Shown piece after piece: positions 1,931 through 53,544 of a stretch of DNA of 64,000 bases. Location: NCBI GenBank assembly GCA_964413645.1, contig CAYPSA010000004.1:25765-89764 (forward strand). The letters run 5' to 3'. How positions within the stretch are numbered: position 1 is the first letter of the stretch; each line of letters begins with the position of its first letter. Under the pieces are notes generated by a model. The model did not search any database. It had not been told where the DNA came from and saw only the letters and a program-made list of their open reading frames with translations. The DNA is from an uncultured Gammaproteobacteria bacterium (GTDB lineage Bacteria; Patescibacteriota; Microgenomatia; UBA1406; HO2-37-13b). The translations under genes were made by a program, and so were the position numbers.

Positions 1931-2055
1931 TGCCCTGGCGATAACCCATTTTCCCCTGCGCATAAAGCACTGAGTATCGTAGGCGCATTTTCGTTTCATG
2001 ACTCTGTTCGAGATGAGAAGAGATGGTTCCAAAAATGCCAGAAATCACCAAGGCA
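1931..2055 (-). rRNA. rrf: 5S ribosomal RNA
   Basis: Minus-strand RNA reads GCCUUGGUGAUUUCUGGC...CUCGAACAGAGUCAUGAAAC...GCGCCUACGAUACUCAG...UAUCGCCAGGGC. The two ends pair over 9 bp (helix I), and the internal blocks match the bacterial 5S pattern (CCGAAC.., GCGCC.A.GGUA-like). Confidence 0.8.
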
Positions 2056-5334: not shown

Positions 5335-6855
5335 CTATTCTTCCCGTACTCGATACTGAAGTGCCTCAGAAATTTCACTAACACCAATCGCTCTAATTCC
5401 TTCCAAATCTGCGATTGTTTGCGACAGTTTAATAATTTTGAAATATGACCGGGCTGAAAGGGAAAGTCGAGAGATTGCCTGAGTAAGAAGACTTGATGCT
5501 TCTGGCTCCATAGTTGTGTATTTTCGAATATCGGCGGCGCTCATTTCACTATTTGTCCGTAACCCACTGGAACCAAAACGCTTCATTTGAATTTCGCGGG
5601 CTTTTTGCACTTTTTCACGTATGCTTTTACTAGCTTCTTCGTGTATTTCGCTCACTAGATCCTCCTCTTTAACTGGCCCAACCGTTACGTGAATGTCAAT
5701 TCGATCTAAAATCGGCCCCGATACCCTTTTCTTATACTGACTTATTTGGAACACGTTACAATGACACCTCTTTTTAGGATGCCCCAGAAATCCACACGGA
5801 CAGGGGTTTGAAGCAGCAATAAGTAAAAATTTTGCAGGGAACGTAACCGACCCAGTTGCACGAGATATAGATACTACCCCGTCTTCGATTGGCTGTCGCA
5901 AGGCCTCAATAACGCTCCGTGGAAACTCTGGAAATTCATCAAGAAATAACGCTCCACGATGGGCCAGTGAAATTTCGCCCGGCGTAAGTTTTGCGCCTCC
6001 CCCAATAAGGCCAATTCGAGAAACCGTATGATGTGGTGCCCGAAATGGACGAATTGTTCGAATAATACCGTCAGTATTTTGACCAGCTACTGAATATATC
6101 TTAGTAACCTCTACCGCTTCCTCTTCATCCATGTCGGGTAATATAGAAGGAAATGCGCGCGACATGAGCGTCTTACCTCCTCCGGGAGGACCTTTTAAAT
6201 GAATATTATGAAAACCTGCTGCGGCAATTGTGAGGGCTCTTTTAGCTTGTTGCTGACCATGAATAGCTGAAAAATCACTTTCGTAATTATTTTTTCTTCG
6301 AACTGAACGTAATGAAATATACTGATGAGGTTCCTTGATTTTGATCTTATTAAGATGAAGTATGAGATCGGTAAGTTTTTCAAATGAATACACAAAAATT
6401 CCTTCAACCATTGCTGCTTCCGCGACGTTTTGCCGAGGTACAATAATATTTTTAATGTGCTCTTTTTTTGCAAGAATAGTAATGGGAAGCACTCCAGAAA
6501 CAGGTTGAATTTTACCTTCTAAGGATAGTTCTCCAATAAATAATGAGTTCTCTACAAAATCTCGTTCTAAATTACCCGATGAGGCGAGTATACCAACAGC
6601 TATGGGTAAATCAAATAACGACCCCTCTTTAGGAATATTTGCTGGTGCTAAATTCACAACAATTCGGGACTCCGGCATTTCAAAATCGGAATTATGAATC
6701 GCAGTTTTTACGCGTTCTTTTGATTCCTCAATTGATTTATTGGGAAGTCCTACAATATTAAATGCCGGAAATCCACGACTCGCCACATCAACTTCAACCT
6801 TAATCAACACTCCGTCCAGTCCCACTGTTGCTGCTGAATATACAGTGGTTAGCAT
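5335..6855 (-). CDS. comM: YifB/ComM family Mg-chelatase-like AAA ATPase
   Basis: 506 aa with an N-terminal Lon-S5-like domain, Walker A GPPGGGKT, FLDEFPEF Walker B, and a CPCG...C.C zinc motif typical of ComM/YifB. Confidence 0.85.
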   Translation of the reverse strand: MLTTVYSAATVGLDGVLIKVEVDVASRGFPAFNIVGLPNKSIEESKERVKTAIHNSDFEMPESRIVVNLAPANIPKEGSLFDLPIAVGILASSGNLERDFVENSLFIGELSLEGKIQPVSGVLPITILAKKEHIKNIIVPRQNVAEAAMVEGIFVYSFEKLTDLILHLNKIKIKEPHQYISLRSVRRKNNYESDFSAIHGQQQAKRALTIAAAGFHNIHLKGPPGGGKTLMSRAFPSILPDMDEEEAVEVTKIYSVAGQNTDGIIRTIRPFRAPHHTVSRIGLIGGGAKLTPGEISLAHRGALFLDEFPEFPRSVIEALRQPIEDGVVSISRATGSVTFPAKFLLIAASNPCPCGFLGHPKKRCHCNVFQISQYKKRVSGPILDRIDIHVTVGPVKEEDLVSEIHEEASKSIREKVQKAREIQMKRFGSSGLRTNSEMSAADIRKYTTMEPEASSLLTQAISRLSLSARSYFKIIKLSQTIADLEGIRAIGVSEISEALQYRVREE

Positions 6856-12712: not shown

Positions 12713-13107
12713 GGGGATGAACGGTATCGACGGGAGGATCGCACGTTTACAAATCGCCAGGTCGGAGCTATTCGTTAAATAGCATACTAAATGCAGATAA
12801 CAAGTCTGTAGGTTCTTACGGTTACGGTTATGCATTTGCATAAACTTAATTGCTAAGACCCGTTTTCTTTCACGTTTTACTCTGTGTTTTACAGAAAGAA
12901 GGCGCCAACCAATACAGGGTGCGTAGTGTGTGGGTTTTAAAGCTAGTTTACTACACGCTTCAAAGATCTTATCGCAAGACAAGAACAAACAATTGTCGCT
13001 TTTTAAAATTGTTGATTATATAAAAAGCGTATAAATCATCTACACCTGGCTACACGATTGTAAAATTGCCCTTTCGGACCCGGGTTCAACTCCCGGCATC
13101 TCCACCA
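12713..13107 (+). ncRNA. ssrA: tmRNA (transfer-messenger RNA)
   Basis: The 5' end GGGGAUGAACGGUAUCGACGGG and the 3' end GGACCCGGGUUCAACUCCCGGCAUCUCCACCA form the tRNA-like domain. The internal tag frame gca gat aac aag tct gta ggt tct tac ggt tac ggt tat gca ttt gca taa gives ADNKSVGSYGYGYAFA*. Confidence 0.9.
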
Positions 13108-25623: not shown

Positions 25624-26415
25624 ATGGAACCCCATCCGGTACCTCGACAGATTACTACATTTGAGTTCAAATTAATTGGGTTTATGACCTTAAAAGAGTT
25701 TGCGTATATGATTGTGTTTGCAGGCTTGGCGACAATTACATATTTTTTGACACCGGGGGAACTGTTTAAATATATAGGCGCCGCGATAGTTTTTGCCATT
25801 GGAATCTTTTTAGCTTTTTACAAATATAATGAACGGTCAGTAGACGTGTGGATTCGTAATTTAGTACTTAAGATGTTTTCATCGTCGCAGTACTATTACC
25901 ATAAGAAAAACGATCCTCCTTCATTCTTAGAAAACATTATTTACGATAAAAATATTGCGGTTTTGCACGCAGATGCGCAGAAGAAGCTAACGAGCTATTT
26001 GGGAAAAGTTGAGAAAGCTCCTGTCGTAGGGACAAAGGTTGAAATGGCGCCCCCTACTCCAGTAGACACTGTTGAAACAGAGCCAGTTCAGACTCCCACT
26101 CCTATCGATACTTCTCCTCCTGAGCCAGTAGTGGAGACACTCGTCTCCGAACACCCGGCGCTCTCCGGAATTGTAAAAAACGGCAAAGATTTACCTATCC
26201 CAAATATTTTGGTGTATGTGAAAAATAAAGAAGGTCAAGTTGCGCGGATTCTTAAAACAGACAATCATGGTGTGTTTTCGACCACAAAACCCCTCGGAAG
26301 CGACCAGATTATTCTTGAACCCAAAGATAGCGCGAATCGATTCTTTTTTGATACACTGAATATTAATCCGGGTGCCGGTACGCCCCTTGTTATTCGTTCC
26401 CGAGAGGCATTGTAG
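25624..26415 (+). CDS. PrgI/VirB3-like T4SS membrane protein with C-terminal carboxypeptidase-regulatory-like beta domain
   Basis: The N-terminus VPRQITTFEFKLIGFMTLKEFAYMIVFAGLATITYFL matches the PrgI-family pattern. A Pro/Thr/Val linker follows, then GIVKNGKDLPIPNILVYVKNKEGQVARILKTDNHGVF. Confidence 0.55.
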   Translation: MEPHPVPRQITTFEFKLIGFMTLKEFAYMIVFAGLATITYFLTPGELFKYIGAAIVFAIGIFLAFYKYNERSVDVWIRNLVLKMFSSSQYYYHKKNDPPSFLENIIYDKNIAVLHADAQKKLTSYLGKVEKAPVVGTKVEMAPPTPVDTVETEPVQTPTPIDTSPPEPVVETLVSEHPALSGIVKNGKDLPIPNILVYVKNKEGQVARILKTDNHGVFSTTKPLGSDQIILEPKDSANRFFFDTLNINPGAGTPLVIRSREAL

Positions 26416-26423
26416 CCACATAT

Positions 26424-27077
26424 ATGACTATTCGAAAACCAACAAGCCCCGTAAAATCATCTACACAAGACTTCATCGAAATCGAAGCGGTATTTGAAGA
26501 TGTGGTTATGATGAAAGATTATTCGTGCGCCATTTTAATAGAGGCAGGAACAACAAACTTCGGCCTCCTTTCAGAAGAAGAGCAACAGGCATTAATATAC
26601 TCTTATGCTTCGCTATTAAATTCTCTATCATTCCCTGTTCAAATTTCAATCATTTCCAAACGAATGGATATTTCATCGTACCTGAGCTACTTAGAAGAAA
26701 AATTGGAGTCTCAAAAAGATGAAACGCTTCGCAAGCGACTAATAACATACACGGAGTTCATTAAAAACATGGTGAAAAAAAGTACAATTTTGGAAAAGAA
26801 CTTTTATTTTGTAATTCCATTCTCCCCGCTTGAGCTTGGACTTTCATCAAATACAAAGAGGAAGCTAGAAAAAGACTATGTATTTACCCGAGCAAAAACA
26901 GCGCTATATCCCAAGCGCGATCATTTATTGCGACTGTTAAAAAAAGCGGGTCTTGGAGGAAGGGCATTGTATGAGCAAGAAGTTTCTGAGATTTTTTATA
27001 ACCTATACAATCCTTCAGCGACTGGCCGAAAACTTTCTGCAATTAAAAGTTACACCGACATTATTTTAACGTCATGA
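26424..27077 (+). CDS. VirB4/TrbE-type N-terminal domain encoded as a separate ORF
   Basis: TQDFIEIEAVFEDVVMMKDYSCAILIEAGTTNFGLLSEEEQQALIYSYASLLNSLSFPVQISIISKRMD follows the pattern of the N-terminal region of Gram-positive VirB4 homologues. Overlaps the next ORF by ATGA. Confidence 0.55.
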   Translation: MTIRKPTSPVKSSTQDFIEIEAVFEDVVMMKDYSCAILIEAGTTNFGLLSEEEQQALIYSYASLLNSLSFPVQISIISKRMDISSYLSYLEEKLESQKDETLRKRLITYTEFIKNMVKKSTILEKNFYFVIPFSPLELGLSSNTKRKLEKDYVFTRAKTALYPKRDHLLRLLKKAGLGGRALYEQEVSEIFYNLYNPSATGRKLSAIKSYTDIILTS

Positions 27078-28780
27078 AAAACTTAGCGAGTACGTTATTA
27101 ATGCCAGGAGCCGTGTCGCTTAAAGATATTGTTGCGCCTTCATTTGTAGAGGTCGATTTTAACAATATTAAAATTGATGAAAAGTTTTATCGAACGCTAT
27201 TCGTTGTCGGTTACCCTCGATTCGTGGCTCCAAACTGGCTCTCATCGCTCATAGCTTTTGATCACCCACTTTATGTTTCCATGTTCATTTATCCAAATGA
27301 GTCCAAAGATATCTTGAAAGACTTGCGTAGAAAAGTCGCTGAAATGGAAGCAACCATTGATTCAGATATTAAGGCTGGGAAAGTTGTAGATCCTTCCGTT
27401 CAGGTAGCGCTTGATGATGCACTTATGCTTCAAAATGAACTTGCCGCCGGAAGTGAGCGCTTTTTTCAGTTCGGGTTGTATGTAACAATTCCAGCCGACA
27501 CCAAGATCGAACTTGATCGAATTACTAAGGAAGTTGAATCTTCTCTGTCGTCGCTCCTTATTGTCGCAAAAACCGCCACGCTTGAAATGGAAGAAGGATT
27601 CAAATCTACTCTACCTTTGTTCTTAGATAAATTGCGTATTTGGAGAAATATGGACACTACATCACTCGCTACGTCGTTTCCGTTTGTAACTTCAAGCCTT
27701 ACTCAAAACGAAGGAATTATGTATGGGGTAAATGAGCACGATGGTAGTTTGGTAATTTTTGATCGGTTCTCACTTGAAAGTGCAAACTCTATTATCTTGG
27801 GAAAGTCAGGAGGAGGAAAAAGCTTTTTGGTTAAATTAGAAGCACTTCGCTTACTCCTTATGGGAACTGACGTTATTATTATCGATCCAGAAAACGAGTA
27901 TGAAAAGCTAACCACAGCCGTAGGCGGTGAATTTGCTTCATTTTCAATCTCATCGACATTCAAAATCAATCCATTCGACCTTGGCAGCGATGATCAAGAG
28001 CCCGATGAGCTAGCAAACAAAATTCAAAGCCTCCATTCACTTATGCGTGTAGTAATGGGCGATCTTACGCCTGCACAAGACGCACTTTTAGATCGTTCGC
28101 TCGTTACTACCTATGCTCAGAAGGGAATAACGCAAGACGTCACCACCCACAAAAAGGAACCACCTCTTATGGAAGATCTTTATAAAGTTCTTTTGGGAAC
28201 CGAAACTGCCGAAGGCGCAGAATTAGCTGCTCGTCTAGAGAAATTCATTAAAGGGTCTGCGAGTGGAATTTTTAATCAGCAATCAAATTTTGATATTAAG
28301 AATAAATTTACCGTGTTTGGTGTGCGTGATTTAGAAGAGAACCTTCGACCGATTGCCATGTATATTATTCTTGATTTCGTATGGAGTAGAATTCGAAAAG
28401 ACAAAAGAAAGAGAGTACTCGTTGTTGACGAGGCATGGTACCTTATAAAACACAAAGACTCTGCAGCATTCTTATTTAGTCTCGCCAAACGTGCGCGAAA
28501 ATATCAACTCGGACTCACTACCATTACTCAAGACGTGGAGGATTTCTTGAGCGTTGAAGAGGGTCGGGCTATATTGACTAACTCAAGCCTTCAAATACTG
28601 TTAAAACAAAGCACAGCAGCAATAGACCGGGTCGCAGATACTTTCAACCTAACCGCCGGAGAAAAACACTTTTTACTATCTGGTGGCGTAGGAGAAGGTC
28701 TCTTTTTTGCAGGATCTTCGCATGTAGGTATTAAAATCTTAGCTTCCGAAGAAGAAAATGCAACAATTTCGCAATCGTAG
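27074..28780 (+). CDS. virB4: VirB4-like T4SS ATPase (middle and ATPase domains)
   Basis: Walker A GKSGGGKSFLVK, Walker B VLVVDEAWYL, and TTITQDVEDF. The N-terminal YRTLFVVGYPRFVAPNWLSSL is typical of VirB4. Confidence 0.8.
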   Translation: MKNLASTLLMPGAVSLKDIVAPSFVEVDFNNIKIDEKFYRTLFVVGYPRFVAPNWLSSLIAFDHPLYVSMFIYPNESKDILKDLRRKVAEMEATIDSDIKAGKVVDPSVQVALDDALMLQNELAAGSERFFQFGLYVTIPADTKIELDRITKEVESSLSSLLIVAKTATLEMEEGFKSTLPLFLDKLRIWRNMDTTSLATSFPFVTSSLTQNEGIMYGVNEHDGSLVIFDRFSLESANSIILGKSGGGKSFLVKLEALRLLLMGTDVIIIDPENEYEKLTTAVGGEFASFSISSTFKINPFDLGSDDQEPDELANKIQSLHSLMRVVMGDLTPAQDALLDRSLVTTYAQKGITQDVTTHKKEPPLMEDLYKVLLGTETAEGAELAARLEKFIKGSASGIFNQQSNFDIKNKFTVFGVRDLEENLRPIAMYIILDFVWSRIRKDKRKRVLVVDEAWYLIKHKDSAAFLFSLAKRARKYQLGLTTITQDVEDFLSVEEGRAILTNSSLQILLKQSTAAIDRVADTFNLTAGEKHFLLSGGVGEGLFFAGSSHVGIKILASEEENATISQS

Positions 28781-29881
28781 CTATTCTGTTTCCTCGATCC
28801 GAATAGGCATTACAATGTGAATAAAGTCATTATTTCCCTCGATCTTAAACACCCCAGGAGCCGTTGGTGACGAAGATTCAAAAATCACCGATTCGGTATC
28901 GATAGCATTTAGAAACTCTAAAATAAATCTAAAATTAAATGCAACCCGCGTGTCTTCACCCTCATATGTTTGAATGTCCTGAAATATCACGGTCCCATCA
29001 CGTTCTACCCCACGTGGAACCAAATGCATTCCAGCTTTTTTAATCTCCAAAATTGCTGTGCTTGAAATATCGCGAGCAAATACCGAAACAAGTTTCACGT
29101 TTCGTAAAAATTCTTCTCGATTTACAATAATCCTCGTACGATGTTCCTGGGGAATTACGCGCGCAAATGGAGGGAATTCACCGTCAATAAGGCGTGAAAA
29201 AATCGTTGTGTCACCGTTTACAAACTTTACAAATTTTTCAGTCTCAGAAATTACTAATGAGAGCTGTTTTTTTCCAAACAATCTTAATACTTCTTCCAAG
29301 ATCGAGGCAGAAATTGTAAATGCAGCAAATTCTCCTTCGTGCTTGCCCGAAACGAGTGATAGTCTAAATCCATCGGTAGCAGATATATAGAGTGTGTTTG
29401 CTTTGCATGAAAAATTAACACCCGTCAAAATCGGTCGGGCTAGATCTTTAGAAGCTGCAAGTAATACAAGCGGGAGATCTTTAAGCATTTTCTCTTTAAA
29501 TTCAATTGCTTCTCCTTCAAATGCTGGTAGTGCTGGATAGTCGGTGGCAGAAATTACGGGGAATGTTCCCTTTGTTTTATCGGTTTCAATAAGTACGGTA
29601 CTCGCCGTTGATGAAAGAGTAACATCGCCGGGTTTCAAATAACTTAGAAAATCCACGATGTGTCGGATATCACAAACACCTTCTCCTTCTTCAATTACCG
29701 TCGCTTTAATCTTTGTATAAAAGAAGTCGTTTAGATTTGTAGCAATGATTTCGATATGTCCATCCTTTACTCTGAGCAATCCTCCTTGTAATGAAGATAG
29801 TGATGATGTTCGAGATACACAAAACTTTGTTGCAGTTACCAACGCATCCTTTAATTGTGTGTTTGGAATGGTTACTTTCAT
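28781..29881 (-). CDS. dnaN: DNA polymerase III beta sliding clamp
   Basis: 366 aa three-domain clamp pattern, immediately downstream of dnaA. Confidence 0.9.
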   Translation of the reverse strand: MKVTIPNTQLKDALVTATKFCVSRTSSLSSLQGGLLRVKDGHIEIIATNLNDFFYTKIKATVIEEGEGVCDIRHIVDFLSYLKPGDVTLSSTASTVLIETDKTKGTFPVISATDYPALPAFEGEAIEFKEKMLKDLPLVLLAASKDLARPILTGVNFSCKANTLYISATDGFRLSLVSGKHEGEFAAFTISASILEEVLRLFGKKQLSLVISETEKFVKFVNGDTTIFSRLIDGEFPPFARVIPQEHRTRIIVNREEFLRNVKLVSVFARDISSTAILEIKKAGMHLVPRGVERDGTVIFQDIQTYEGEDTRVAFNFRFILEFLNAIDTESVIFESSSPTAPGVFKIEGNNDFIHIVMPIRIEETE

Positions 29882-30009: not shown

Positions 30010-31344
30010 TCATAGCGCAAGCGATTGGGTTATCCTGTCAATCTCTTCCTTAAAATTTGGGTTTTTAAGCATGAGGTTTGTTATCTTGTCGGAGGCATGA
30101 ATTACGGTTGTGTGGTCTTTTCTTTTAAGCATGTATGCTACGTCTTCAAGATTGAGTTTTAAATGATTTCGCAAGATGTACATTACAATCTGGCGCGGTA
30201 ATACAATGCTTTCCTTGCGTCCAGGTTTTTTTAATACCGCTGGACTCACATTATAATAGGCACACACCACTCGGATTACATCTTGAGGAGTTACTTTCGA
30301 AGCTTGTTTTGCATTGTGTTTGTCGATATCCTTCCCCACAGAGTCGGGAGTGATTACTCCCCCATGGTCTAAAGAGTTGGTATAAATTCGTAATAATTGT
30401 CCTTCCAATTCACGGGCGTCGGCTGTTTTTTGGGCGATCAGACTTGCTGTTTGGAAGTCGATATCAATATTTCGCGCCTTTGCCTTGATTAAAAGAATGG
30501 CTGTACGAAGCTCAAAATCGGGCTTTTGAATATCGATTGCAAGTCCTCCGGCAAAGCGCGACTTTAATCGATCTTCAAGCTTCTTGATTTCACCTGGGGG
30601 CCGGTCGGACACTAAGATTATCTGTCCACCCTTCTTAATAATCGTATTAAAAGTATGATAAAACTCCTCTTGCACATAATTTTTCCCGGCTAGAAACTGC
30701 ACATCGTCAACTATTAGCAAGTCAAGCTCGCGATATTTCTTTCGGAATTCGTTTGTGCTCTTTTCACGTATAAGCTCGACTAAGTCGTTGGTGAACTCTT
30801 CGGAAGTACAGAACAATACTTTCTTGGTTGGATTTACTTCTAATATGCTATGTGCAATTGCTTGTGAAATATGTGTTTTGCCTACCCCTACCCCACCGTA
30901 GATAAAGAGTGGATTGTATGAGGTCCCTGGATTTCGACTTACGGCTGTTGCGGCAGCATAGGCTATTTGGTTGCTTGACGAAACTGCAAAGCTCTCGAAT
31001 GTAAACTGGGGTAATAGTCCCGCATCGGCTACGCTTGTTTCTTTGGCCTTTTCAAATACCGCCAGCGGAAGCGGTTCGGCTTCCTTCTTTTTTATTCGAG
31101 CACCTGCTTTAAATTCAAATCGTATTGTTATTGGAGTGCCCGCTACCGCCGTTAGGAGCTCTTCAAGCCGCGCCTTTTGCTTTTCAAGGTACATATGCAC
31201 TCCTTCATTAGGGTAATTGATAGTAAAAACCCCTTCTTCCAACGATTCTGGCGAAGCTTGTTTTACTACCTGTAAGAACGTAGAAGAATCGGGAAGATTT
31301 TGAATTGTTGTTAAGAGTTTGTCCCAGGAAGCCAAAACTGTCAT
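30010..31344 (-). CDS. dnaA: chromosomal replication initiator DnaA
   Basis: Walker A GGVGVGKTHISQA, box VII/VIII region, and a C-terminal DNA-binding domain (HTTVIHA). The start at 31344 (MTVLASW) is preferred because the longer track ORF translates through the DnaA boxes. Confidence 0.95.
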   Translation of the reverse strand: MTVLASWDKLLTTIQNLPDSSTFLQVVKQASPESLEEGVFTINYPNEGVHMYLEKQKARLEELLTAVAGTPITIRFEFKAGARIKKKEAEPLPLAVFEKAKETSVADAGLLPQFTFESFAVSSSNQIAYAAATAVSRNPGTSYNPLFIYGGVGVGKTHISQAIAHSILEVNPTKKVLFCTSEEFTNDLVELIREKSTNEFRKKYRELDLLIVDDVQFLAGKNYVQEEFYHTFNTIIKKGGQIILVSDRPPGEIKKLEDRLKSRFAGGLAIDIQKPDFELRTAILLIKAKARNIDIDFQTASLIAQKTADARELEGQLLRIYTNSLDHGGVITPDSVGKDIDKHNAKQASKVTPQDVIRVVCAYYNVSPAVLKKPGRKESIVLPRQIVMYILRNHLKLNLEDVAYMLKRKDHTTVIHASDKITNLMLKNPNFKEEIDRITQSLAL

Positions 31345-31351
31345 AATAAAT

Positions 31352-31370
31352 TGTGGATAACTTATCCACA
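31352..31370. promoter_or_regulatory. two perfect DnaA boxes in inverted orientation
   Basis: tgtggataa (31352-31360) and ttatccaca (31362-31370), 8 nt upstream of the dnaA start. An A/T-rich stretch follows. Confidence 0.85.
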
Positions 31371-31474
31371 GATAATAAACAATAAAAACGGGGTTTTCAA
31401 CGAGAAGAAGACTATAGGAGGTGAAGTTTGGGAGGTATCTTTTCAAGGAAGAGTAGAGAGAAAGGAGGAGGTGG

Positions 31475-31500
31475 ATTGTGGACCGGAGGGGACTTGAACC
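31475..31500. repeat. direct repeat copy, a displaced 3' fragment of tRNA-Ala (attgtggaccggaggggacttgaacc)
   Basis: Perfect 26-bp identity with 32433-32458, which covers the T-arm 3' half, the acceptor 3' strand and 4 nt downstream of the intact tRNA-Ala. Confidence 0.95.
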
Positions 31501-32432
31501 GCCTCCAATTACTCCTTTGTAAGAATATTCTGGGGTTTCCCAGAAACAAAGGTCTCAATATTTTGAACTGCTATTTCAGCACCATTCATTACTGCTTGCT
31601 TTGACGAAAATGCGATATGAGGAGTTACTAATATTTTAGGATTTGAAAGTGCTTTTTGATAAAATTCATTTGTTGTATCTCCAAACTTTTCTGGATCACA
31701 GTCTATGGCTGCTCCTGCAATAATATTATTTTCAATTGATTTTATAAGACCCCCCAGATCATATGTGTATTGTCTGACGAAAGTTATGTAGTAGGCACCT
31801 TTTTTAAGCGACATAAAAAAATTCTCATCCAACAAGTTCTTACTTGAAGTATTGCAATTCAAAGAGTTAATTATTAAATCGGAATCAGCAGATCTATCGT
31901 GTAAATCATCATCTCGCTCAAAAAAGTCGACCCGCATTCCAAAAGCTTCGCAGAGAAGAGCGATTTTCGTACCAATACTACCTTTTCCAATAATCAACAC
32001 TTTTTTGTCGACTAAACTTTCTTGAAGTTCAACGGGAAAATTCTCATTCACTCTAACCATAGGAATAAACTTCCGGAAAAGTGATAGTGTCATAAACATT
32101 ACCCACTCTATAATCGAGGATCTATTTCCTCCCTGGGAGTTTGCTATTAATACTCCGCTCTTCTCTAATTCCTTTGTATTAAACAGACCAAGCTCAACGT
32201 ACGGATAGGTAATAAAAACGTTTCTAAGAGAAGACAGGCTATCAAGCAAGAATGCACCGTCGCTATATAGTATATCTGAGCTTGCGGCCTGTTTTATTAG
32301 TTCGTCAGAAGATGAGGGGCTTGGTAAATATTTAACTTCACCAAGTATTTGCAGGCGTGCTTTTTGCTTATCATCTAAATTTCCCCCAAAGACAACAATT
32401 TTTCTCATAATAGTTATTTAGAGATAAACATA
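31501..32432. mobile_element. putative integrase-less single-gene insertion at the tRNA-Ala 3' end
   Basis: 932 bp between the two 26-bp repeat copies, containing only the 2-hydroxyacid dehydrogenase gene. Confidence 0.5.
31509..32408 (-). CDS. D-isomer-specific 2-hydroxyacid dehydrogenase family protein
   Basis: NAD-binding VLIIGKGSIGTKIALLCEAFGMRV and catalytic-region ...AAIDCD...LVTPHIAFSS. Confidence 0.75.
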   Translation of the reverse strand: MRKIVVFGGNLDDKQKARLQILGEVKYLPSPSSSDELIKQAASSDILYSDGAFLLDSLSSLRNVFITYPYVELGLFNTKELEKSGVLIANSQGGNRSSIIEWVMFMTLSLFRKFIPMVRVNENFPVELQESLVDKKVLIIGKGSIGTKIALLCEAFGMRVDFFERDDDLHDRSADSDLIINSLNCNTSSKNLLDENFFMSLKKGAYYITFVRQYTYDLGGLIKSIENNIIAGAAIDCDPEKFGDTTNEFYQKALSNPKILVTPHIAFSSKQAVMNGAEIAVQNIETFVSGKPQNILTKE

Positions 32433-32436
32433 ATTG

Positions 32437-32510
32437 TGGACCGGAGGGGACTTGAACCCCTGACCCCTTCACTGCCAGCGAAGTGCTCTAGCCAACTGAG
32501 CTACCGGCCC
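32437..32510 (-). tRNA. tRNA-Ala (anticodon GGC)
   Basis: Revcomp is GGGCCGGUAGCUCAGUUGGCUAGAGCACUUCGCUGGCAGUGAAGGGGUCAGGGGUUCAAGUCCCCUCCGGUCCA. It has the G3:U70 identity pair and anticodon loop CUGGCAG. No encoded CCA. Confidence 0.9.
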
Positions 32511-32542
32511 AACAGGCTTATTATACCAAGTAGAAATACTAT

Positions 32543-32731
32543 TTAATAAGGAGCTGGATCGATTGGAGTAGAATGTGGTTCTACTTTCGGACCGGTCCCT
32601 GGTGTGGGGGAACCATATGGCTCGGGCCCGTCGGGAGTTGGGGTGGGCGTGGATCGAGGAAAATCAAAGGGACTTGGTCTTGTGTCATCTGGTGGTCCTG
32701 GAATTCGGTCTTTTTGATATTCGTTTGGCAT
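32543..32731 (-). CDS. possible small proline-rich protein
   Basis: 62 aa, about one third Pro (PGPPDDTRPSPFDFPRSTPTPTPDGPEPYGSPTPGTGP). Locally high G+C. No good promoter or SD seen, so it could be non-coding. Confidence 0.3.
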   Translation of the reverse strand: MPNEYQKDRIPGPPDDTRPSPFDFPRSTPTPTPDGPEPYGSPTPGTGPKVEPHSTPIDPAPY

Positions 32732-51821: not shown

Positions 51822-51892
51822 AGCGGGGTAGTGTAAGGCCGCACAGGAGGCTCATAATCTCCTAGGCCGTGGTTCGATTCCCGGCCCCGCAA
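51822..51892 (+). tRNA. tRNA with CAU anticodon (elongator Met or Ile2)
   Basis: D stem GUGU/GCAC. Anticodon stem GGAGG/UCUCC with loop CUCAUAA. T loop UUCGAUU. The T stem needs a bulged U (CCGUGG/CCCGG) and position 1:72 is A:A in the best fold. The GGG/CCC initiator signature is absent. Confidence 0.65.
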
Positions 51893-51903
51893 CATATATA
51901 AAA

Positions 51904-51927
51904 GCCGCCCGAATGGGCGGTTTTTTT
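51904..51927 (+). terminator. intrinsic terminator
   Basis: gccgccc-gaat-gggcgg followed by ttttttt. Confidence 0.8.
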
Positions 51928-51941
51928 GATATTATTCGTAT

Positions 51942-52313
51942 ATGAATTCTTACCAGAAGCAGATAAAGAAATTTAATGATGCTCGCAATTGGGATCAGTT
52001 CCAATCCCCCAAAGACCTCCTTTTGGGCATAGTAGAAGAAATTGGAGAACTTCGCAATATTATTAAATGGGAACAGGATCCTGAGATAATCCGCAAGGTG
52101 ATTTTGGATAATAAAGATGAATTTGAGGATAATATTGGTGATATTTATTGGTTTTTGGCAGTTTTGGCCAACAAGTATGACATTGATATGGATCAAGCAA
52201 TTACCAAAGTCATTAAGGGAAACAAGAAAAGGTTTCCACTAAAACAAACGAAGGATCACCATACTAATCTCAAACTCGGAGGCACGGACAAGCAGTATAA
52301 AAACAAAGCTTAA
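51942..52313 (+). CDS. MazG-like nucleotide pyrophosphohydrolase
   Basis: FNDARNWDQFQSPKDLLLGIVEEIGELRNIIKWE and EDNIGDIYWFLAVLANKYDIDMDQA (EExxE/DxxD-type helices). Confidence 0.75.
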   Translation: MNSYQKQIKKFNDARNWDQFQSPKDLLLGIVEEIGELRNIIKWEQDPEIIRKVILDNKDEFEDNIGDIYWFLAVLANKYDIDMDQAITKVIKGNKKRFPLKQTKDHHTNLKLGGTDKQYKNKA

Positions 52314-52633
52314 AAAAACACTTTTCTCCATTGTTCATATGGAGGCAGGATTACTGTTGGGGTAGGTGTGGGAACTCTTGAAGGTCGGGGAATAATTAAC
52401 TCGGTCTCATTCGGTTTGGTTTTGCCCAATTTATTTCGAATAATTTTTTCTACTTCGTAATAGTCTTTACTCTTTGCAAGATCACTTTTTAATTTTTTAT
52501 TAATTTCTAGCTGCTCATTATATTGTTGTAGACTCGTGTCATAAAACGAATTCTTCTGTAAAGAATCCCAAATACTCTTTGACAGAGCCAAGATCGGCAA
52601 CGCTAAAAGAATAACGATGAGTAGTTTTTTCAT
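52310..52633 (-). CDS. FtsB/DivIC-like septum formation initiator
   Basis: N-terminal TM, a short coiled coil, and YYEVEKIIRNKLG resembling the family C-terminal motif. Confidence 0.55.
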   Translation of the reverse strand: MKKLLIVILLALPILALSKSIWDSLQKNSFYDTSLQQYNEQLEINKKLKSDLAKSKDYYEVEKIIRNKLGKTKPNETELIIPRPSRVPTPTPTVILPPYEQWRKVFF

Positions 52634-52701
52634 AGTATGTATGAGTTCAATATCGTTAGTTGCGGTTGCAATTTGACCATGATAATGATATTATAGGTTA
52701 T

Positions 52702-53544
52702 ATGGATTCAGGAGACCTTCGAGGACTCGTTAGTTCTTTTGTTGAAAACCTCAAGAACCAAGGAAAATCGAATTACACAATTGTAGCATATAAGAAAGAT
52801 TTGGAGCAATTTATTGCCTTCATATCTTCTCGTGAAAAAAACGACATCAAAGAAGTCAAGCGCGATGAGATTGATGGCTTTATTCAAAAGCTATTAGGTG
52901 AAGGATATACAAAGAAATCAGCCTCACGAAAGCTTAATTCAATTAGAACGTTCTTCCGATTCTTAAAGTTAGAAGGTGTTATTGGTCTAAATCCTGCTCT
53001 TGAGGTATCACATCCAAAATATACCCAAGCTCCTCCCCGCATTCTTTCCAAATTAGAATACCGCGCTCTTCGAGATTTTTCTAAAGAAGACCTTCGAACA
53101 TACGCCATTGTAGAACTCTTGCTTCAAACAGGTGTTCGTATTGGAGAGCTTGCAGAAATTAAGACAACCGATATTGGTACGGACTCATTAAAAGTAAATG
53201 GCCGATCAATTCCATTGAATAAGGCTGTTAAAAAAGCTATTGAAGAATATTTAACCATTCGACACAAAACGGATAGCGCGTATTTGTTTGTCACTAAAAC
53301 CGGTCGTCCCCTTTTGGTTCGTAACATTCGCACACTAATTACTCGATGCTTCAGAGAAGTTGGAATCGAAAACGCTAAAGTTCAAGATTTACGAAACACA
53401 TTTATTGCTTATCAGCTCGTTGGAGGCGGATCAATCGCCTATATTTCAAAGATTGTTGGTCACAAACGTCTTTCATCAACTGAAAAATATCTAAACCTCA
53501 TTAAAGAAGAAACCGAACGCAAAGAAAAGCTTGGAGAACTCTAA
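52702..53544 (+). CDS. tyrosine recombinase (XerC/XerD-like)
   Basis: N-terminal SAM-like core-binding domain. Catalytic LLLQTGVRIGEL (Arg), VQDLRNTF (box II with Gln in place of the usual His), VGHKRLSSTEKY (His, Tyr). The ATG at 52702 has TATTAT 7 nt upstream. Confidence 0.8.
   Translation: MDSGDLRGLVSSFVENLKNQGKSNYTIVAYKKDLEQFIAFISSREKNDIKEVKRDEIDGFIQKLLGEGYTKKSASRKLNSIRTFFRFLKLEGVIGLNPALEVSHPKYTQAPPRILSKLEYRALRDFSKEDLRTYAIVELLLQTGVRIGELAEIKTTDIGTDSLKVNGRSIPLNKAVKKAIEEYLTIRHKTDSAYLFVTKTGRPLLVRNIRTLITRCFREVGIENAKVQDLRNTFIAYQLVGGGSIAYISKIVGHKRLSSTEKYLNLIKEETERKEKLGEL

Follow-up and report, generated by a model that had tools for sequence, protein, structure and literature searches.

A dehydrogenase gene between two copies of a tRNA-Ala 3′ end upstream of dnaA in a Microgenomates genome: a candidate integrase-less islet

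Results

One gene lies between two copies of a tRNA-Ala 3′ end

In the 64-kb stretch of DNA analysed here (the window), an intact tRNA-Ala(GGC) gene with a G3:U70 pair and no encoded CCA lies at 32437..32510 (−). It folds into a cloverleaf and was called both by ARAGORN (32436-32510, −) and by the Rfam model RF00005 (32437-32510, 62.7 bits). Its discriminator A73 is at 32437, so that the 26-mer ATTGTGGACCGGAGGGGACTTGAACC takes in 22 nt at the tRNA's 3′ terminus (standard positions 52-73) and 4 nt downstream (CAAT). In a search allowing 3 mismatches, this 26-mer had exactly two copies in the 64 kb: a proximal, attL-like copy (32433..32458, −) and a distal, attR-like copy (31475..31500, −), the latter a displaced tRNA-Ala 3′ fragment. 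An independent repeat search of the window returned the same 26-bp pair; no match is expected by chance, and 0 of 100 dinucleotide shuffles gave one. Sequence comparison of the two copies showed immediate divergence past both repeat ends. Across the 80 loci compared, every match to the 26-mer was a tRNA-Ala gene, except the second copy in the window's own genome. Three relatives (L002, L003 and L081) have the same tRNA-Ala sequence for 77 nt, as far as CCACAA, and L076 has it for 75 nt. No 3′-end duplications were found for the tRNA-Pro, tRNA-Met and tmRNA genes of the window.

The 932 bp between the copies contain one convincing open reading frame, the sole one with family or homologue support. 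It encodes, at 31509..32408 (−), a divergent 299-aa member of the D-isomer-specific 2-hydroxyacid dehydrogenase family (dh hereafter), the sole cargo gene. The NAD-binding domain is recognized by Pfam (2-Hacid_dh_C, PF02826, E = 2.5e-19, 69.8 bits against a cut-off of 25.1), and the catalytic-domain match, at 22 bits, falls slightly below its cut-off of 24.6. Every NCBIfam match was far under cut-off and no equivalog was reached; the best PDB matches were D-3-phosphoglycerate dehydrogenases and phenylpyruvate reductase (E about 1e-14). Homologues numbered 619 at E ≤ 0.001, the best 120 of the 619 being 66-91% identical. The gene starts 28 nt past the tRNA discriminator, with a 24-nt spacer (32409..32432, −) between the proximal repeat and its start codon, and its stop codon lies 8 nt before the distal repeat (31501..31508, −; TTGGAGGC). 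Composition was uninformative as to a foreign origin: dh, at a GC content of 0.361, is not anomalous in a window that averages 0.403 (sd 0.032), and GC and GC3 are within about 1.3 sd of window genes.

These results agree with the original prediction, made from the same DNA, of a perfect 26-bp duplication composed of 22 nt of the tRNA 3′ end plus 4 nt, with two copies at these coordinates that diverge completely beyond the repeat. The 299-aa frame and its Pfam match likewise bear out the claim that the 932 bp hold a dehydrogenase gene alone, and the positions of the discriminator and of dh confirm that the gene lies on the tRNA strand, 28 nt downstream. The prediction had named a 26-mer scattered over many tRNA-unrelated loci as the finding that would speak against it; what the 80 loci held was tRNA-Ala genes only, bar the window's own distal copy.

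Upstream of the tRNA, an extended −10-like element, TGgTATAAT, can be read at 32520..32528 (−), and five relatives (L002, L003, L076, L081 and L088) keep a TATAAT box 11-12 nt upstream of where the tRNA begins. Judged from the sequence, TGgTATAAT is likely the promoter of tRNA-Ala and, through read-through, of dh. A scan of the 24-nt spacer revealed no promoter-like site. Because the 28-nt gap is too short for a promoter and TGgTATAAT lies upstream of the tRNA, co-transcription of tRNA-Ala and dh is plausible.

At the distal junction, a T-arm-like hairpin (31485..31506, −), GGAGG(C)GG-TTCAAGT-CCCCTCC (GGAGGCGG-TTCAAGT-CCCCTCC), has inverted arms that pair better than those of the tRNA itself, with a centroid fold of −11 kcal/mol. 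Its fold is not significantly better than that of shuffles (z = −1.05 in a 91-nt context) and there is no T-run; we rejected a function of the distal fragment as a terminator or otherwise. One might speculate that the hairpin is a putative recombinase core site.

The insertion separates tRNA-Ala from the dnaA control region

Beyond the distal repeat lies a poorly conserved host spacer (31420..31474, −), which in alignments matches the post-tRNA spacer of L002 and L003 in position and length. It is followed by a block of about 75 nt upstream of dnaA (31345..31419, −) that is conserved in all close relatives and undisturbed by the insertion. Inside this block are a promoter-like TTGAAA-17-TATTAT (31400-31372, −) and two perfect, inverted DnaA boxes (31352-31360 and 31362-31370) that lie 104 nt from the distal repeat; dnaA itself is at 30010..31344 (−; Pfam Bac_DnaA, E = 2.6e-63).

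In L002 and L003, whose DnaA is 92% identical to that of the window at the amino acid level (~80% at the nucleotide level), and in the distant relative L004, tRNA-Ala(GGC) lies 132-186 nt upstream of dnaA, without the dehydrogenase. Homology between the window and these unoccupied sites extends as far as the tRNA end (32434) and picks up again from 31500, exactly at the distal copy, the overlap being the repeat itself. After the distal copy come a spacer matching the post-tRNA spacer of L003 and then the conserved dnaA block, the order that would follow if the distal copy were the host's original 3′ end. The dh segment is a real insertion at tRNA-Ala.

A comparison of dnaA upstream regions in relatives had been named in the original prediction as a check, and the adjacency of tRNA-Ala and dnaA in L002, L003 and L004 upholds its claim that the insertion split tRNA-Ala from the DnaA-box region. 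Its further claim that the insert lies beside oriC stands in part: two perfect boxes and dnaA are found at 104 nt, but the oriC assignment draws on these two boxes only. There is no excess of DnaA boxes (19 near-matches in the window against 17 expected).

Two further contigs bear on the structure. L001 (Logan contig SRR8893623) comes from another assembler, and its reads may be those behind the window; over window positions 32463-24000 it is 100% identical, with both repeat copies included. L021, a second lineage from another sample (SRR31616034), carries a dh 91% identical in amino acids and 89.6% in nucleotides, with the same tRNA-side junction, CACAAT, and a similar 24-nt spacer; its right junction is unreadable, the contig ending in a poly-G run. 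Flanking genes are 81-93% identical to L076, a range that takes in the 89.6% of dh, so that shared ancestry suffices, and we rejected L021 as a sign of horizontal spread or repeated excision. With dh some 10% diverged, the still perfect match of the two repeat copies in the window is only a mild surprise.

Across relatives, the slot between tRNA-Ala and the ~75-nt dnaA block is variously empty or filled by dh, a gene for a 185-aa protein, an M29 peptidase, an aldo-keto reductase, an HD-like gene or five genes. Flanking repeats surround dh alone, the five other occupants having none: mismatch-tolerant searches found no repeat at the slots of L076, L081 and L016, and exact and ≤5-mismatch searches at L088 returned the tRNA itself only. 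Relative to L076, dnaA is 93% identical in nucleotides and the adjacent dnaN 81%. Given the five repeat-less occupants and this disparity, the slot has also been remodelled by other routes, probably homologous recombination in the conserved flanks.

No recombinase or parent element accompanies the insert

There is no recombinase between the repeats, as would be found inside an Islander-type element, in line with the earlier remark that the insert comes without an integrase. The sole recombinase detected in the 64-kb window is an Xer-like tyrosine recombinase (52660..53544, +; Pfam Phage_integrase and SAM_1), 20 kb from the insert, with XerC-, XerD- and XerA-like NCBIfam matches that are all under cut-off. 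Its neighbours are the housekeeping genes DivIC, MazG and RNase H. The Xer-like protein is a candidate trans-acting enzyme only, with a putative link to the element. With this protein as query, phmmer found orthologues among the loci compared in L008 and L015 only, a search of low sensitivity for distant integrases, and no recombinase was seen among the annotated genes of the relatives' slots.

The 22-nt core, the 18-nt core of the tRNA-Thr duplication described below and the dh protein were absent from IMG/VR, and the whole insert had no BLAST match in phage and plasmid collections; we rejected a phage or plasmid source on these grounds. Neither IMG/VR nor the phage and plasmid collections yielded an integrase-bearing element with the same core.

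Other tRNA 3′ ends are duplicated in related DNA

Among 29 tRNAs in 610 kb of related DNA, two further 3′-end duplications were found. In L050, from a distant genome, a dh homologue (68% amino acid identity) is bracketed by an 18-nt duplication of tRNA-Thr, from position 56 to the discriminator; in L047, a 23-nt stretch of tRNA-Trp is duplicated, from position 57 to 3 nt past the CCA. All three duplications (tRNA-Ala, -Thr and -Trp) start in or at the T-loop (positions 52, 56 and 57) and end at or just past the tRNA terminus. This shared layout fits an identity block that restores the tRNA, not a target duplication of fixed length. The actual strand-exchange point is unreadable from identical repeats; the left edge of identity is at the T-stem/T-loop boundary in the three cases.

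In 5-6 of about 55 loci, a tRNA (Ala, Thr, Gln, Gly or Arg) immediately precedes dh on the same strand. Flanking repeats of at least 14 nt around dh were found in L050 only among 39 other full-length loci, and a mismatch-tolerant search found no repeat at the tRNA-adjacent copies in L035, L039, L054 and L068. Outside the window's lineage, dh adjoins tRNA-Ala in 0 of about 50 dh loci. The neighbours of dh differ in practically every locus, with none conserved beyond near-duplicate contigs, and therefore no donor context is identifiable; among the matches listed, the closest homologues (L085, L086 and L087, 78-79%) have unrelated, tRNA-free surroundings. The non-coding flanks of the window insert and the L050 insert share no sequence.

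Discussion

We consider it probable (roughly 60%) that the insert is an integrase-less, att-flanked islet of the CIME-like kind, produced by conservative Campbell-type recombination in the segment from the T-loop to tRNA-Ala's 3′ end. In the ancestral state, tRNA-Ala(GGC) stood immediately upstream of the DnaA boxes and promoter of dnaA. The incoming 958-bp segment would have consisted of one repeat copy, a 24-nt leader, dh and 8 nt; bringing along a copy of the tRNA's final 22 nt and 4 nt more, it would have rebuilt the tRNA on the attL side, the original 3′ end being pushed to the far side of the cargo, as attR. Such an outcome would be the product of tyrosine integrases crossing over in the T-loop, and we infer that a site-specific recombinase or integrase made the crossover. 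The enzyme would have acted in trans, supplied by another element or as the host Xer-like recombinase, or else the remainder of a larger element would have been deleted later; either course may apply. The promoterless dh would most likely be read through from the tRNA promoter. An excised circle would carry the junction ...GGAGTAATTGGAGGC-GGTTCAAGTCCCCTCCGGTCCACAAT-TATGTTTATCTC..., and the restored empty site would be the full tRNA joined to ...CACAAT-CCACCTCCTCC....

The reconstructed attP has 58 nt of non-coding DNA. As this is too short for lambda-type arm sites, a larger element that decayed would need very tidy deletions, and action in trans would call for a simple Xer/Cre-like recombinase. 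The lack of an integrase in cis, the failure of our searches to find a parent element, the tiny attP and the five repeat-less slot occupants count against a site-specific model.

The layout has close counterparts. In mycobacteriophage Ms6, attP and attB share a 26-bp common core on tRNA-Ala with crossover in the T-loop (PMC1762012), and the identity block here likewise spans 26 bp from the T-arm to just past the tRNA 3′ end. As in Ms6 and in Islander-type tDNA islands (PMC1762012, PMC4383910), insertion took place in the 3′ part of a tRNA gene, which here too is tRNA-Ala(GGC). As in the islands (PMC4383910), the tRNA gene is regenerated, the displaced 3′ fragment stands as a direct repeat at the far end and empty sites exist in relatives. 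The classical attL/attR signature originally proposed fits, the repeat beginning at the edge of the T-loop and stopping just beyond the tRNA, like the Ms6 core (PMC1762012). Unlike these elements, which are integrase-defined and several kb to more than 100 kb in length, the insert measures 958 bp with 58 nt non-coding and lacks an integrase, excisionase or other mobility gene. CIMEs are a recognized class that has kept attL and attR and lost the integration genes (PMC5704250); the insert resembles them in having att-like repeats at the 3′ end of its target gene and cargo only, with no recombination or transfer genes, but its size is far below that of described CIMEs, and no ICE or IME parent sharing its att is known.

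In the streamlined genome of Prochlorococcus, partial tRNAs mark the integration of tycheposons (bioRxiv 10.1101/2020.12.28.424599). Our locus shares with them a streamlined genome, variable genes beside particular tRNAs, partial tRNAs and a metabolic cargo; the tyrosine or serine recombinase of tycheposons, and their frequent replication module, are present neither in the insert nor in the relatives' slots. Integron cassettes are single promoterless open reading frames expressed from an outside promoter, and IMEX exploit host Xer recombinases and have no recombinase of their own. One tightly packed promoterless frame behind an outside promoter recalls the former, but attC, intI and attI are absent, the T-arm-like hairpin is the sole palindromic feature, and the Xer-like protein scores a weak 45 bits with the integron-integrase model, whose cut-off is 265. 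The insert is like IMEX in having no recombinase of its own in a host with a candidate Xer-like enzyme, and unlike them in its target, a tRNA T-loop next to dnaA in place of the chromosomal dif that IMEX enter through a dif-like attP.

To our knowledge, gene gain in CPR/Patescibacteria is poorly understood, integrases, plasmids and prophages being rarely recognized in these small genomes, and ICEs are essentially undescribed in CPR bacteria, the host group of the insert. Known both empty and occupied, and with the same junction in a second lineage, the locus offers a clean, dated case of gene gain, in a unit about as small as an att-flanked one can get. The stretch from tRNA-Ala to the dnaA control region is a hot spot of gene turnover in the clade. 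Practical consequences are modest: the pattern of events is well known and the cargo is an ordinary oxidoreductase with no substrate assigned.

An unlikely alternative is that a circle from a related bacterium entered by a short-homology single crossover (RecA-type or homology-facilitated) through the 26-bp tRNA-Ala identity, without a site-specific recombinase. The identical or near-identical tRNA-Ala of many relatives would be a ready anchor for it, the locus bears signs of exchange (dnaA and dnaN against L076), the content of the slot differs by lineage and mostly lacks repeats, and no integrase was found. In principle, RecA-type recombination could make use of a 26-bp identity. Such a length is at the lower limit for RecA-dependent exchange, which counts against this route, and the route leaves unexplained both the origin of a circle or fragment joining dh to a tRNA 3′ end, an arrangement absent at tRNA-Ala from the dh loci outside the window's lineage, and the three independent duplications from T-loop to terminus.

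Rather more doubtful is a special form of the islet reading, in which a minimal cassette system sends ~1-kb circles, made of dh and a tRNA-mimicking core, repeatedly into tRNA T-loops by a recombinase in trans, much as integron cassettes or Xer-exploiting elements move. The bracketing of the same family at tRNA-Thr in L050, the placement of dh behind same-strand tRNAs elsewhere and its ever-changing neighbours are what such a system would leave, as are the tight packing (24 nt and 8 nt) without a promoter of its own and the improved inverted repeat around the T-loop at the distal junction. Repeats bracket two cases only, however, and these have nothing in common in their non-coding flanks; the other tRNA-adjacent copies lack a repeat even with mismatches, no circular form, L050 empty site or recombinase was identified, and poor synteny is common in CPR genomes at such divergence. 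By extension, and with equally low confidence, CPR (Microgenomates) may gain genes in a cassette-like manner, as ~1-kb promoterless single-gene units with a mimic of the tRNA from T-loop to 3′ end, inserted in trans, possibly by the single Xer-like enzyme of the host, with the tRNA promoter driving their expression; dh, found at tRNA-Ala here and at tRNA-Thr in L050, would be a passenger that recurs. Should minimal units of this sort be moved by a recombinase in trans, the whole class would escape island finders that depend on an integrase.

Target-site duplication, in which a transposase- or casposase-like enzyme would cut the tRNA 3′ end with a 26-bp stagger before linear insertion and gap repair, seems highly improbable. 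It would give direct repeats of the target around an insert, and casposons do target tRNA 3′ ends. A repeat search found no terminal inverted repeats at the insert ends, such as DNA transposons and casposons have, Pfam scans of the genes surrounding the insert and the Xer-like gene showed no transposase, and a fixed stagger would not give lengths of 18, 23 and 26 nt that each end at a tRNA terminus.

Least probable of all is an assembly artefact or chance repeat: this is a metagenome assembly, in which tRNAs common to co-occurring species break contigs (L001 and L021 both end in the tRNA), but chance predicts no match, 26 bp is shorter than typical assembly k-mers, a second assembler gave the identical structure, and the same left junction recurs in a second lineage from another sample.

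An insertion between tRNA-Ala and the dnaA control region

The window contains just two exact copies of the 26-mer ATTGTGGACCGGAGGGGACTTGAACC, one at 31475-31500 and the other at 32433-32458; no further copy was found in the window with up to three mismatches allowed, none of 100 shuffled sequences contained a match, and a separate repeat search returned the same 26-bp pair (family D2). The copy at 32433-32458 lies in a tRNA-Ala(GGC) gene on the minus strand (32436-32510 by ARAGORN, 32437-32510 by Rfam) that folds as a normal cloverleaf with its G3:U70 pair retained. The repeat has the sequence GGTTCAAGTCCCCTCCGGTCCA-CAAT on the tRNA strand: standard tRNA positions 52-73, which take in the final two T-stem pairs, the T-loop, the 3' strands of both T-stem and acceptor stem and the discriminator, followed by four bases from downstream of the tRNA. 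The exact pair and the intact tRNA support the original prediction of a duplicated tRNA-Ala 3' end, and its coordinates, counts (a repeat of 22 + 4 nt, 932 bp between copies) and distances (28 nt from tRNA to gene, DnaA boxes about 100 bp away) were correct.

By DnaA, the relatives of this genome are CPR bacteria of the Microgenomates/Candidatus Roizmanbacteria type. In two species-level relatives (L002, JAYPGZ010000008.1; L003, CAYQYZ010000002.1; DnaA 92% identical in amino acids, flanking DNA ~80%), tRNA-Ala(GGC) lies 132-134 nt upstream of dnaA and the dehydrogenase gene is absent; in a distant locus, L004 (DnaA 49%), the same tRNA lies 186 nt upstream. BLASTN homology between the window and the empty-site loci reaches the tRNA end (32434) and picks up again at 31500; in the relatives' coordinates the two stretches overlap by ~25 nt, and this overlap corresponds to the repeat. 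These alignments identify a 958-bp insertion (one repeat unit plus 932 bp) with target duplication, a standard signature. The distal copy is followed by a poorly conserved ~55-nt spacer, the counterpart of the post-tRNA spacer in L003, and then by a ~75-nt block, almost invariant in all relatives, containing two inverted DnaA boxes and a promoter-like site. The insertion parted tRNA-Ala from the dnaA control region and left the latter untouched; the predicted separation of the tRNA from the putative origin region with its DnaA boxes is borne out by the empty sites in L002, L003 and L004.

An assembly artefact is very unlikely: a Logan contig from a different assembler (L001, SRR8893623), which may come from the same reads as the window, is 100% identical over window positions 32463 to 24000 and includes both repeat copies. 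In a contig from another sample (L021, SRR31616034), the dehydrogenase is 91% identical in amino acids and 89.6% in nucleotides, and the contig opens with CACAAT and a recognisably similar 24-nt leader, the same tRNA-side junction and the only one readable, the other end being lost in a poly-G run. By this comparison the insertion is common to two lineages ~10% diverged in the dehydrogenase gene. The nearest non-carrier, L076, has 81-93% nucleotide identity to the window across five flanking genes; since divergence of the dehydrogenase is comparable with this flanking-gene divergence, common ancestry would be enough to explain the sharing.

Just upstream of tRNA-Ala, a 62-aa proline-rich ORF (32543-32731, minus strand) has no Pfam match. 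Its nucleotide identity to L003 is 87%, higher than that of its neighbours, and it is probably a real small gene on that ground.

The insert carries a single dehydrogenase gene

The sole convincing ORF between the copies (31509-32408, minus strand, 299 aa) has a match to PF02826 (E = 2.5e-19), the NAD-binding domain of D-isomer-specific 2-hydroxyacid dehydrogenases. No NCBIfam equivalog came near its cut-off, and among solved structures the best matches are to D-3-phosphoglycerate dehydrogenases and a phenylpyruvate reductase (E about 1e-14); on these matches the protein is classed as a divergent member of the family. The gene starts 24 nt past the proximal repeat and stops 8 nt ahead of the distal one. 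A promoter scan of the 24-nt leader gave no candidate, and TGgTATAAT stands directly upstream of tRNA-Ala, with the TATAAT box kept at the same position in relatives. With a promoter-free leader and a conserved box upstream of the tRNA, the dehydrogenase is most likely expressed by read-through transcription started at the tRNA promoter.

The base composition of the insert is not anomalous. Homologues of the dehydrogenase number 619 at E <= 0.001, the best 120 of these being 66-91% identical; those recovered in loci share 63-91% identity, and their neighbours differ practically every time (~55 loci from genomes and metagenomes). Apart from the 91% homologue in L021, none above 80% identity was found, and since the genomes of L002 and L003 are both within the searched collection, these two appear to have no close orthologue, MAG incompleteness aside. 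In 5-6 of the ~55 loci a homologue immediately follows a tRNA in the same orientation, and the tRNAs vary (Arg, Thr, Gly, Gln, Trp).

Three duplicated tRNA 3' ends begin at or in the T-loop

Across 610 kb of the window and related loci, 3 of 29 tRNA genes are followed by a copy of their own 3' end. The window's tRNA-Ala has a 26-nt copy starting at position 52, the tRNA-Thr of L050 an 18-nt copy starting at position 56, and the tRNA-Trp of L047 a 23-nt copy starting at position 57, with a 109-nt insert that contains no gene between tRNA and copy. All three copies begin at or in the T-loop and stop 0-4 nt after the tRNA, as would be expected if an element supplied a replacement 3' end through a T-loop crossover, and not of a transposase with a fixed stagger.

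In L050 (PJEL010000143.1, 4844-5947), a homologue of the dehydrogenase (68% amino acid identity) has tRNA-Thr(TGT) on one side and, on the other, a perfect repeat of the tRNA-Thr 3' end, TGACTCCCTTCGCAGGCT, running from T-loop position 56 to the discriminator. The stop codon, ending at 5894-5897 depending on the call, precedes this copy by 35 nt (5895-5929), and the chance probability of the 18-nt match is of the order of 1e-6. No flanking repeat was found at the remaining tRNA-adjacent homologues. About 95 nt on (start to start), L050 has a second, ~70%-similar copy of the fragment plus ~47 nt of flank, which suggests serial events or tandem duplication.

Elsewhere, L047 (Ga0180007_10011548, 543-748) has tRNA-Trp(CCA), the gene-less insert and an exact 23-nt copy spanning T-loop position 57 to 3 nt past CCA, and looks like the scar of an element integrated and then deleted. 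In loci L035 and L039 (80-312), a tRNA-like 3' fragment, CGGTTCGATCCCTACCACCGAAGCCA, lies between tRNA-Arg(TCT) and the dehydrogenase; it does not match that tRNA and may be the displaced end of a different one. The window's tmRNA (12713-13107, plus strand; tag peptide ADNKSVGSYGYGYAFA) and 5S rRNA gene (1933-2052, minus strand) have no duplicated 3' end in the window.

Probable site-specific integration without a resident integrase

The best-supported reading is a site-specific integration of the Campbell type within the stretch of tRNA-Ala from T-loop to 3' end, where a crossover would leave an att-flanked islet without an integrase. Empty sites and repeat geometry support the original prediction's interpretation of an element integrated at a tRNA 3' end, which also held that the insert lacks an integrase; its single convincing ORF agrees, and no recombinase was found between the copies. 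The closest documented parallel is mycobacteriophage Ms6, whose attP/attB common core, AGGGGTTCGAATCCCCTTAGCTCCAC, has 26 bases from the T-arm to tRNA-Ala's 3' terminus, exchange probably taking place in the seven-base T-loop (PMC1762012); the window repeat is likewise 26 bp and covers the same part of tRNA-Ala. CIMEs keep attL and attR and lack integration and transfer genes (PMC5704250), as does this islet with its attL- and attR-like repeats. Tycheposons leave material marked by partial tRNAs beside tRNA genes in another streamlined genome (bioRxiv 10.1101/2020.12.28.424599), and here too the islet adjoins a tRNA gene and is marked by a partial tRNA. Islander maps islands by a regenerated target and a displaced fragment (PMC4383910); the window shows just this arrangement, with an intact tRNA-Ala and a displaced 3' fragment across the cargo. 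The event pattern is already well known, that of a tRNA-targeted integrative islet without an integrase; above routine are the islet's minimal size and the recurrence, independently in L050, of a member of the same dehydrogenase family bracketed by tRNA sequence.

Such an islet could have arisen by decay of a larger element until a single useful gene was left, which would need very tidy deletions sparing a 26-bp non-coding fragment, or as a natively minimal cassette moved by a recombinase in trans, to which the L050 case and the tight packing lend slight weight. A trans-mobilised system of single-gene cassettes at tRNA T-loops seems improbable to us. Short-homology recombination of imported DNA would explain neither where the tRNA-tagged fragment came from nor why the repeats start at the T-loop. 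A transposase-like enzyme that duplicated its target site fits poorly with the varying duplication lengths and with the insert, on which no terminal inverted repeats were found.

The only tyrosine recombinase detected in the window (52660-53544) matches XerC, XerD and XerA models, all below cut-off, in a housekeeping setting of DivIC, MazG and RNase H genes. Used as a phmmer query on every locus, with all frames of 100 aa or longer included, this protein returned its orthologues only. The repeat core and the dehydrogenase were both absent from IMG/VR, and the insert had no match in phage and plasmid collections. With the insert ends joined, the notional attP has just 58 nt that are non-coding. 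In the sequence of the distal junction, GGAGG(C)GG-TTCAAGT-CCCCTCC, the inverted arms on either side of the T-loop match each other better than those of the tRNA itself; this would suit a simple core-type recombinase site, but may also reflect chance.

A tRNA-Met(CAT) gene lies ~770 nt upstream of the Xer-like gene, with the MazG and DivIC genes between. That this region (51822-53544) is an integrated element is unlikely, as the tRNA-Met 3' end had no second copy in the window.

The tRNA-Ala/dnaA slot is a gene-turnover hot spot

We surveyed the space between tRNA-Ala(GGC) and the conserved ~75-nt block upstream of dnaA (30010-31344, minus strand) in genomes with DnaA at least 79% identical, plus the more distant L016, taking window positions 31345-31474 and their counterparts as the reference. 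It is empty in L002 and L003, whereas the window and L021 have the dehydrogenase there. In the other genomes it holds a 185-aa gene without a family match in L076-L080 and L083-L084 (opposite strand), a Peptidase_M29 gene in L081 and L082 (tRNA strand), an aldo-keto reductase in L088 (opposite strand), a gene possibly for an HD-domain hydrolase in L089 (opposite strand) and five genes in L016. None of the other occupants has a tRNA 3'-end copy beside it, even with mismatches allowed. The region upstream of tRNA-Ala varies too: L002 and L076 have a gene of 437-441 aa there, and L081 has a PIN/MazE pair. Judged by these gene contents, the slot is a hot spot of gene turnover, and the islet's location in it, right beside the control region of dnaA in a CPR bacterium, is a further feature above routine.

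Homologous exchange between lineages also appears to act at the locus. Compared with L076, dnaA is 93% identical in nucleotides, the adjacent dnaN (28781-29881) 81% and other flanking genes 85-88%; the difference between dnaA and dnaN suggests a recent exchange covering dnaA. Adjoining dnaN, a type IV secretion-like cluster (25624-28780, plus strand; PrgI-like/TraC-like/VirB4-type ATPase) keeps its position in all close relatives.

L081 (ERZ27275293 k141_1648549) has at 2518-2532 a 15-nt copy of tRNA-Ala positions 42-56, AAGGGGTCAGGGGTT, 20 nt upstream of the intact tRNA-Ala and at the -35 position of the tRNA promoter. It stops within the T-loop, near the starting point of the window's repeat, and may be what an earlier event with the same crossover point left behind on its left-hand side.
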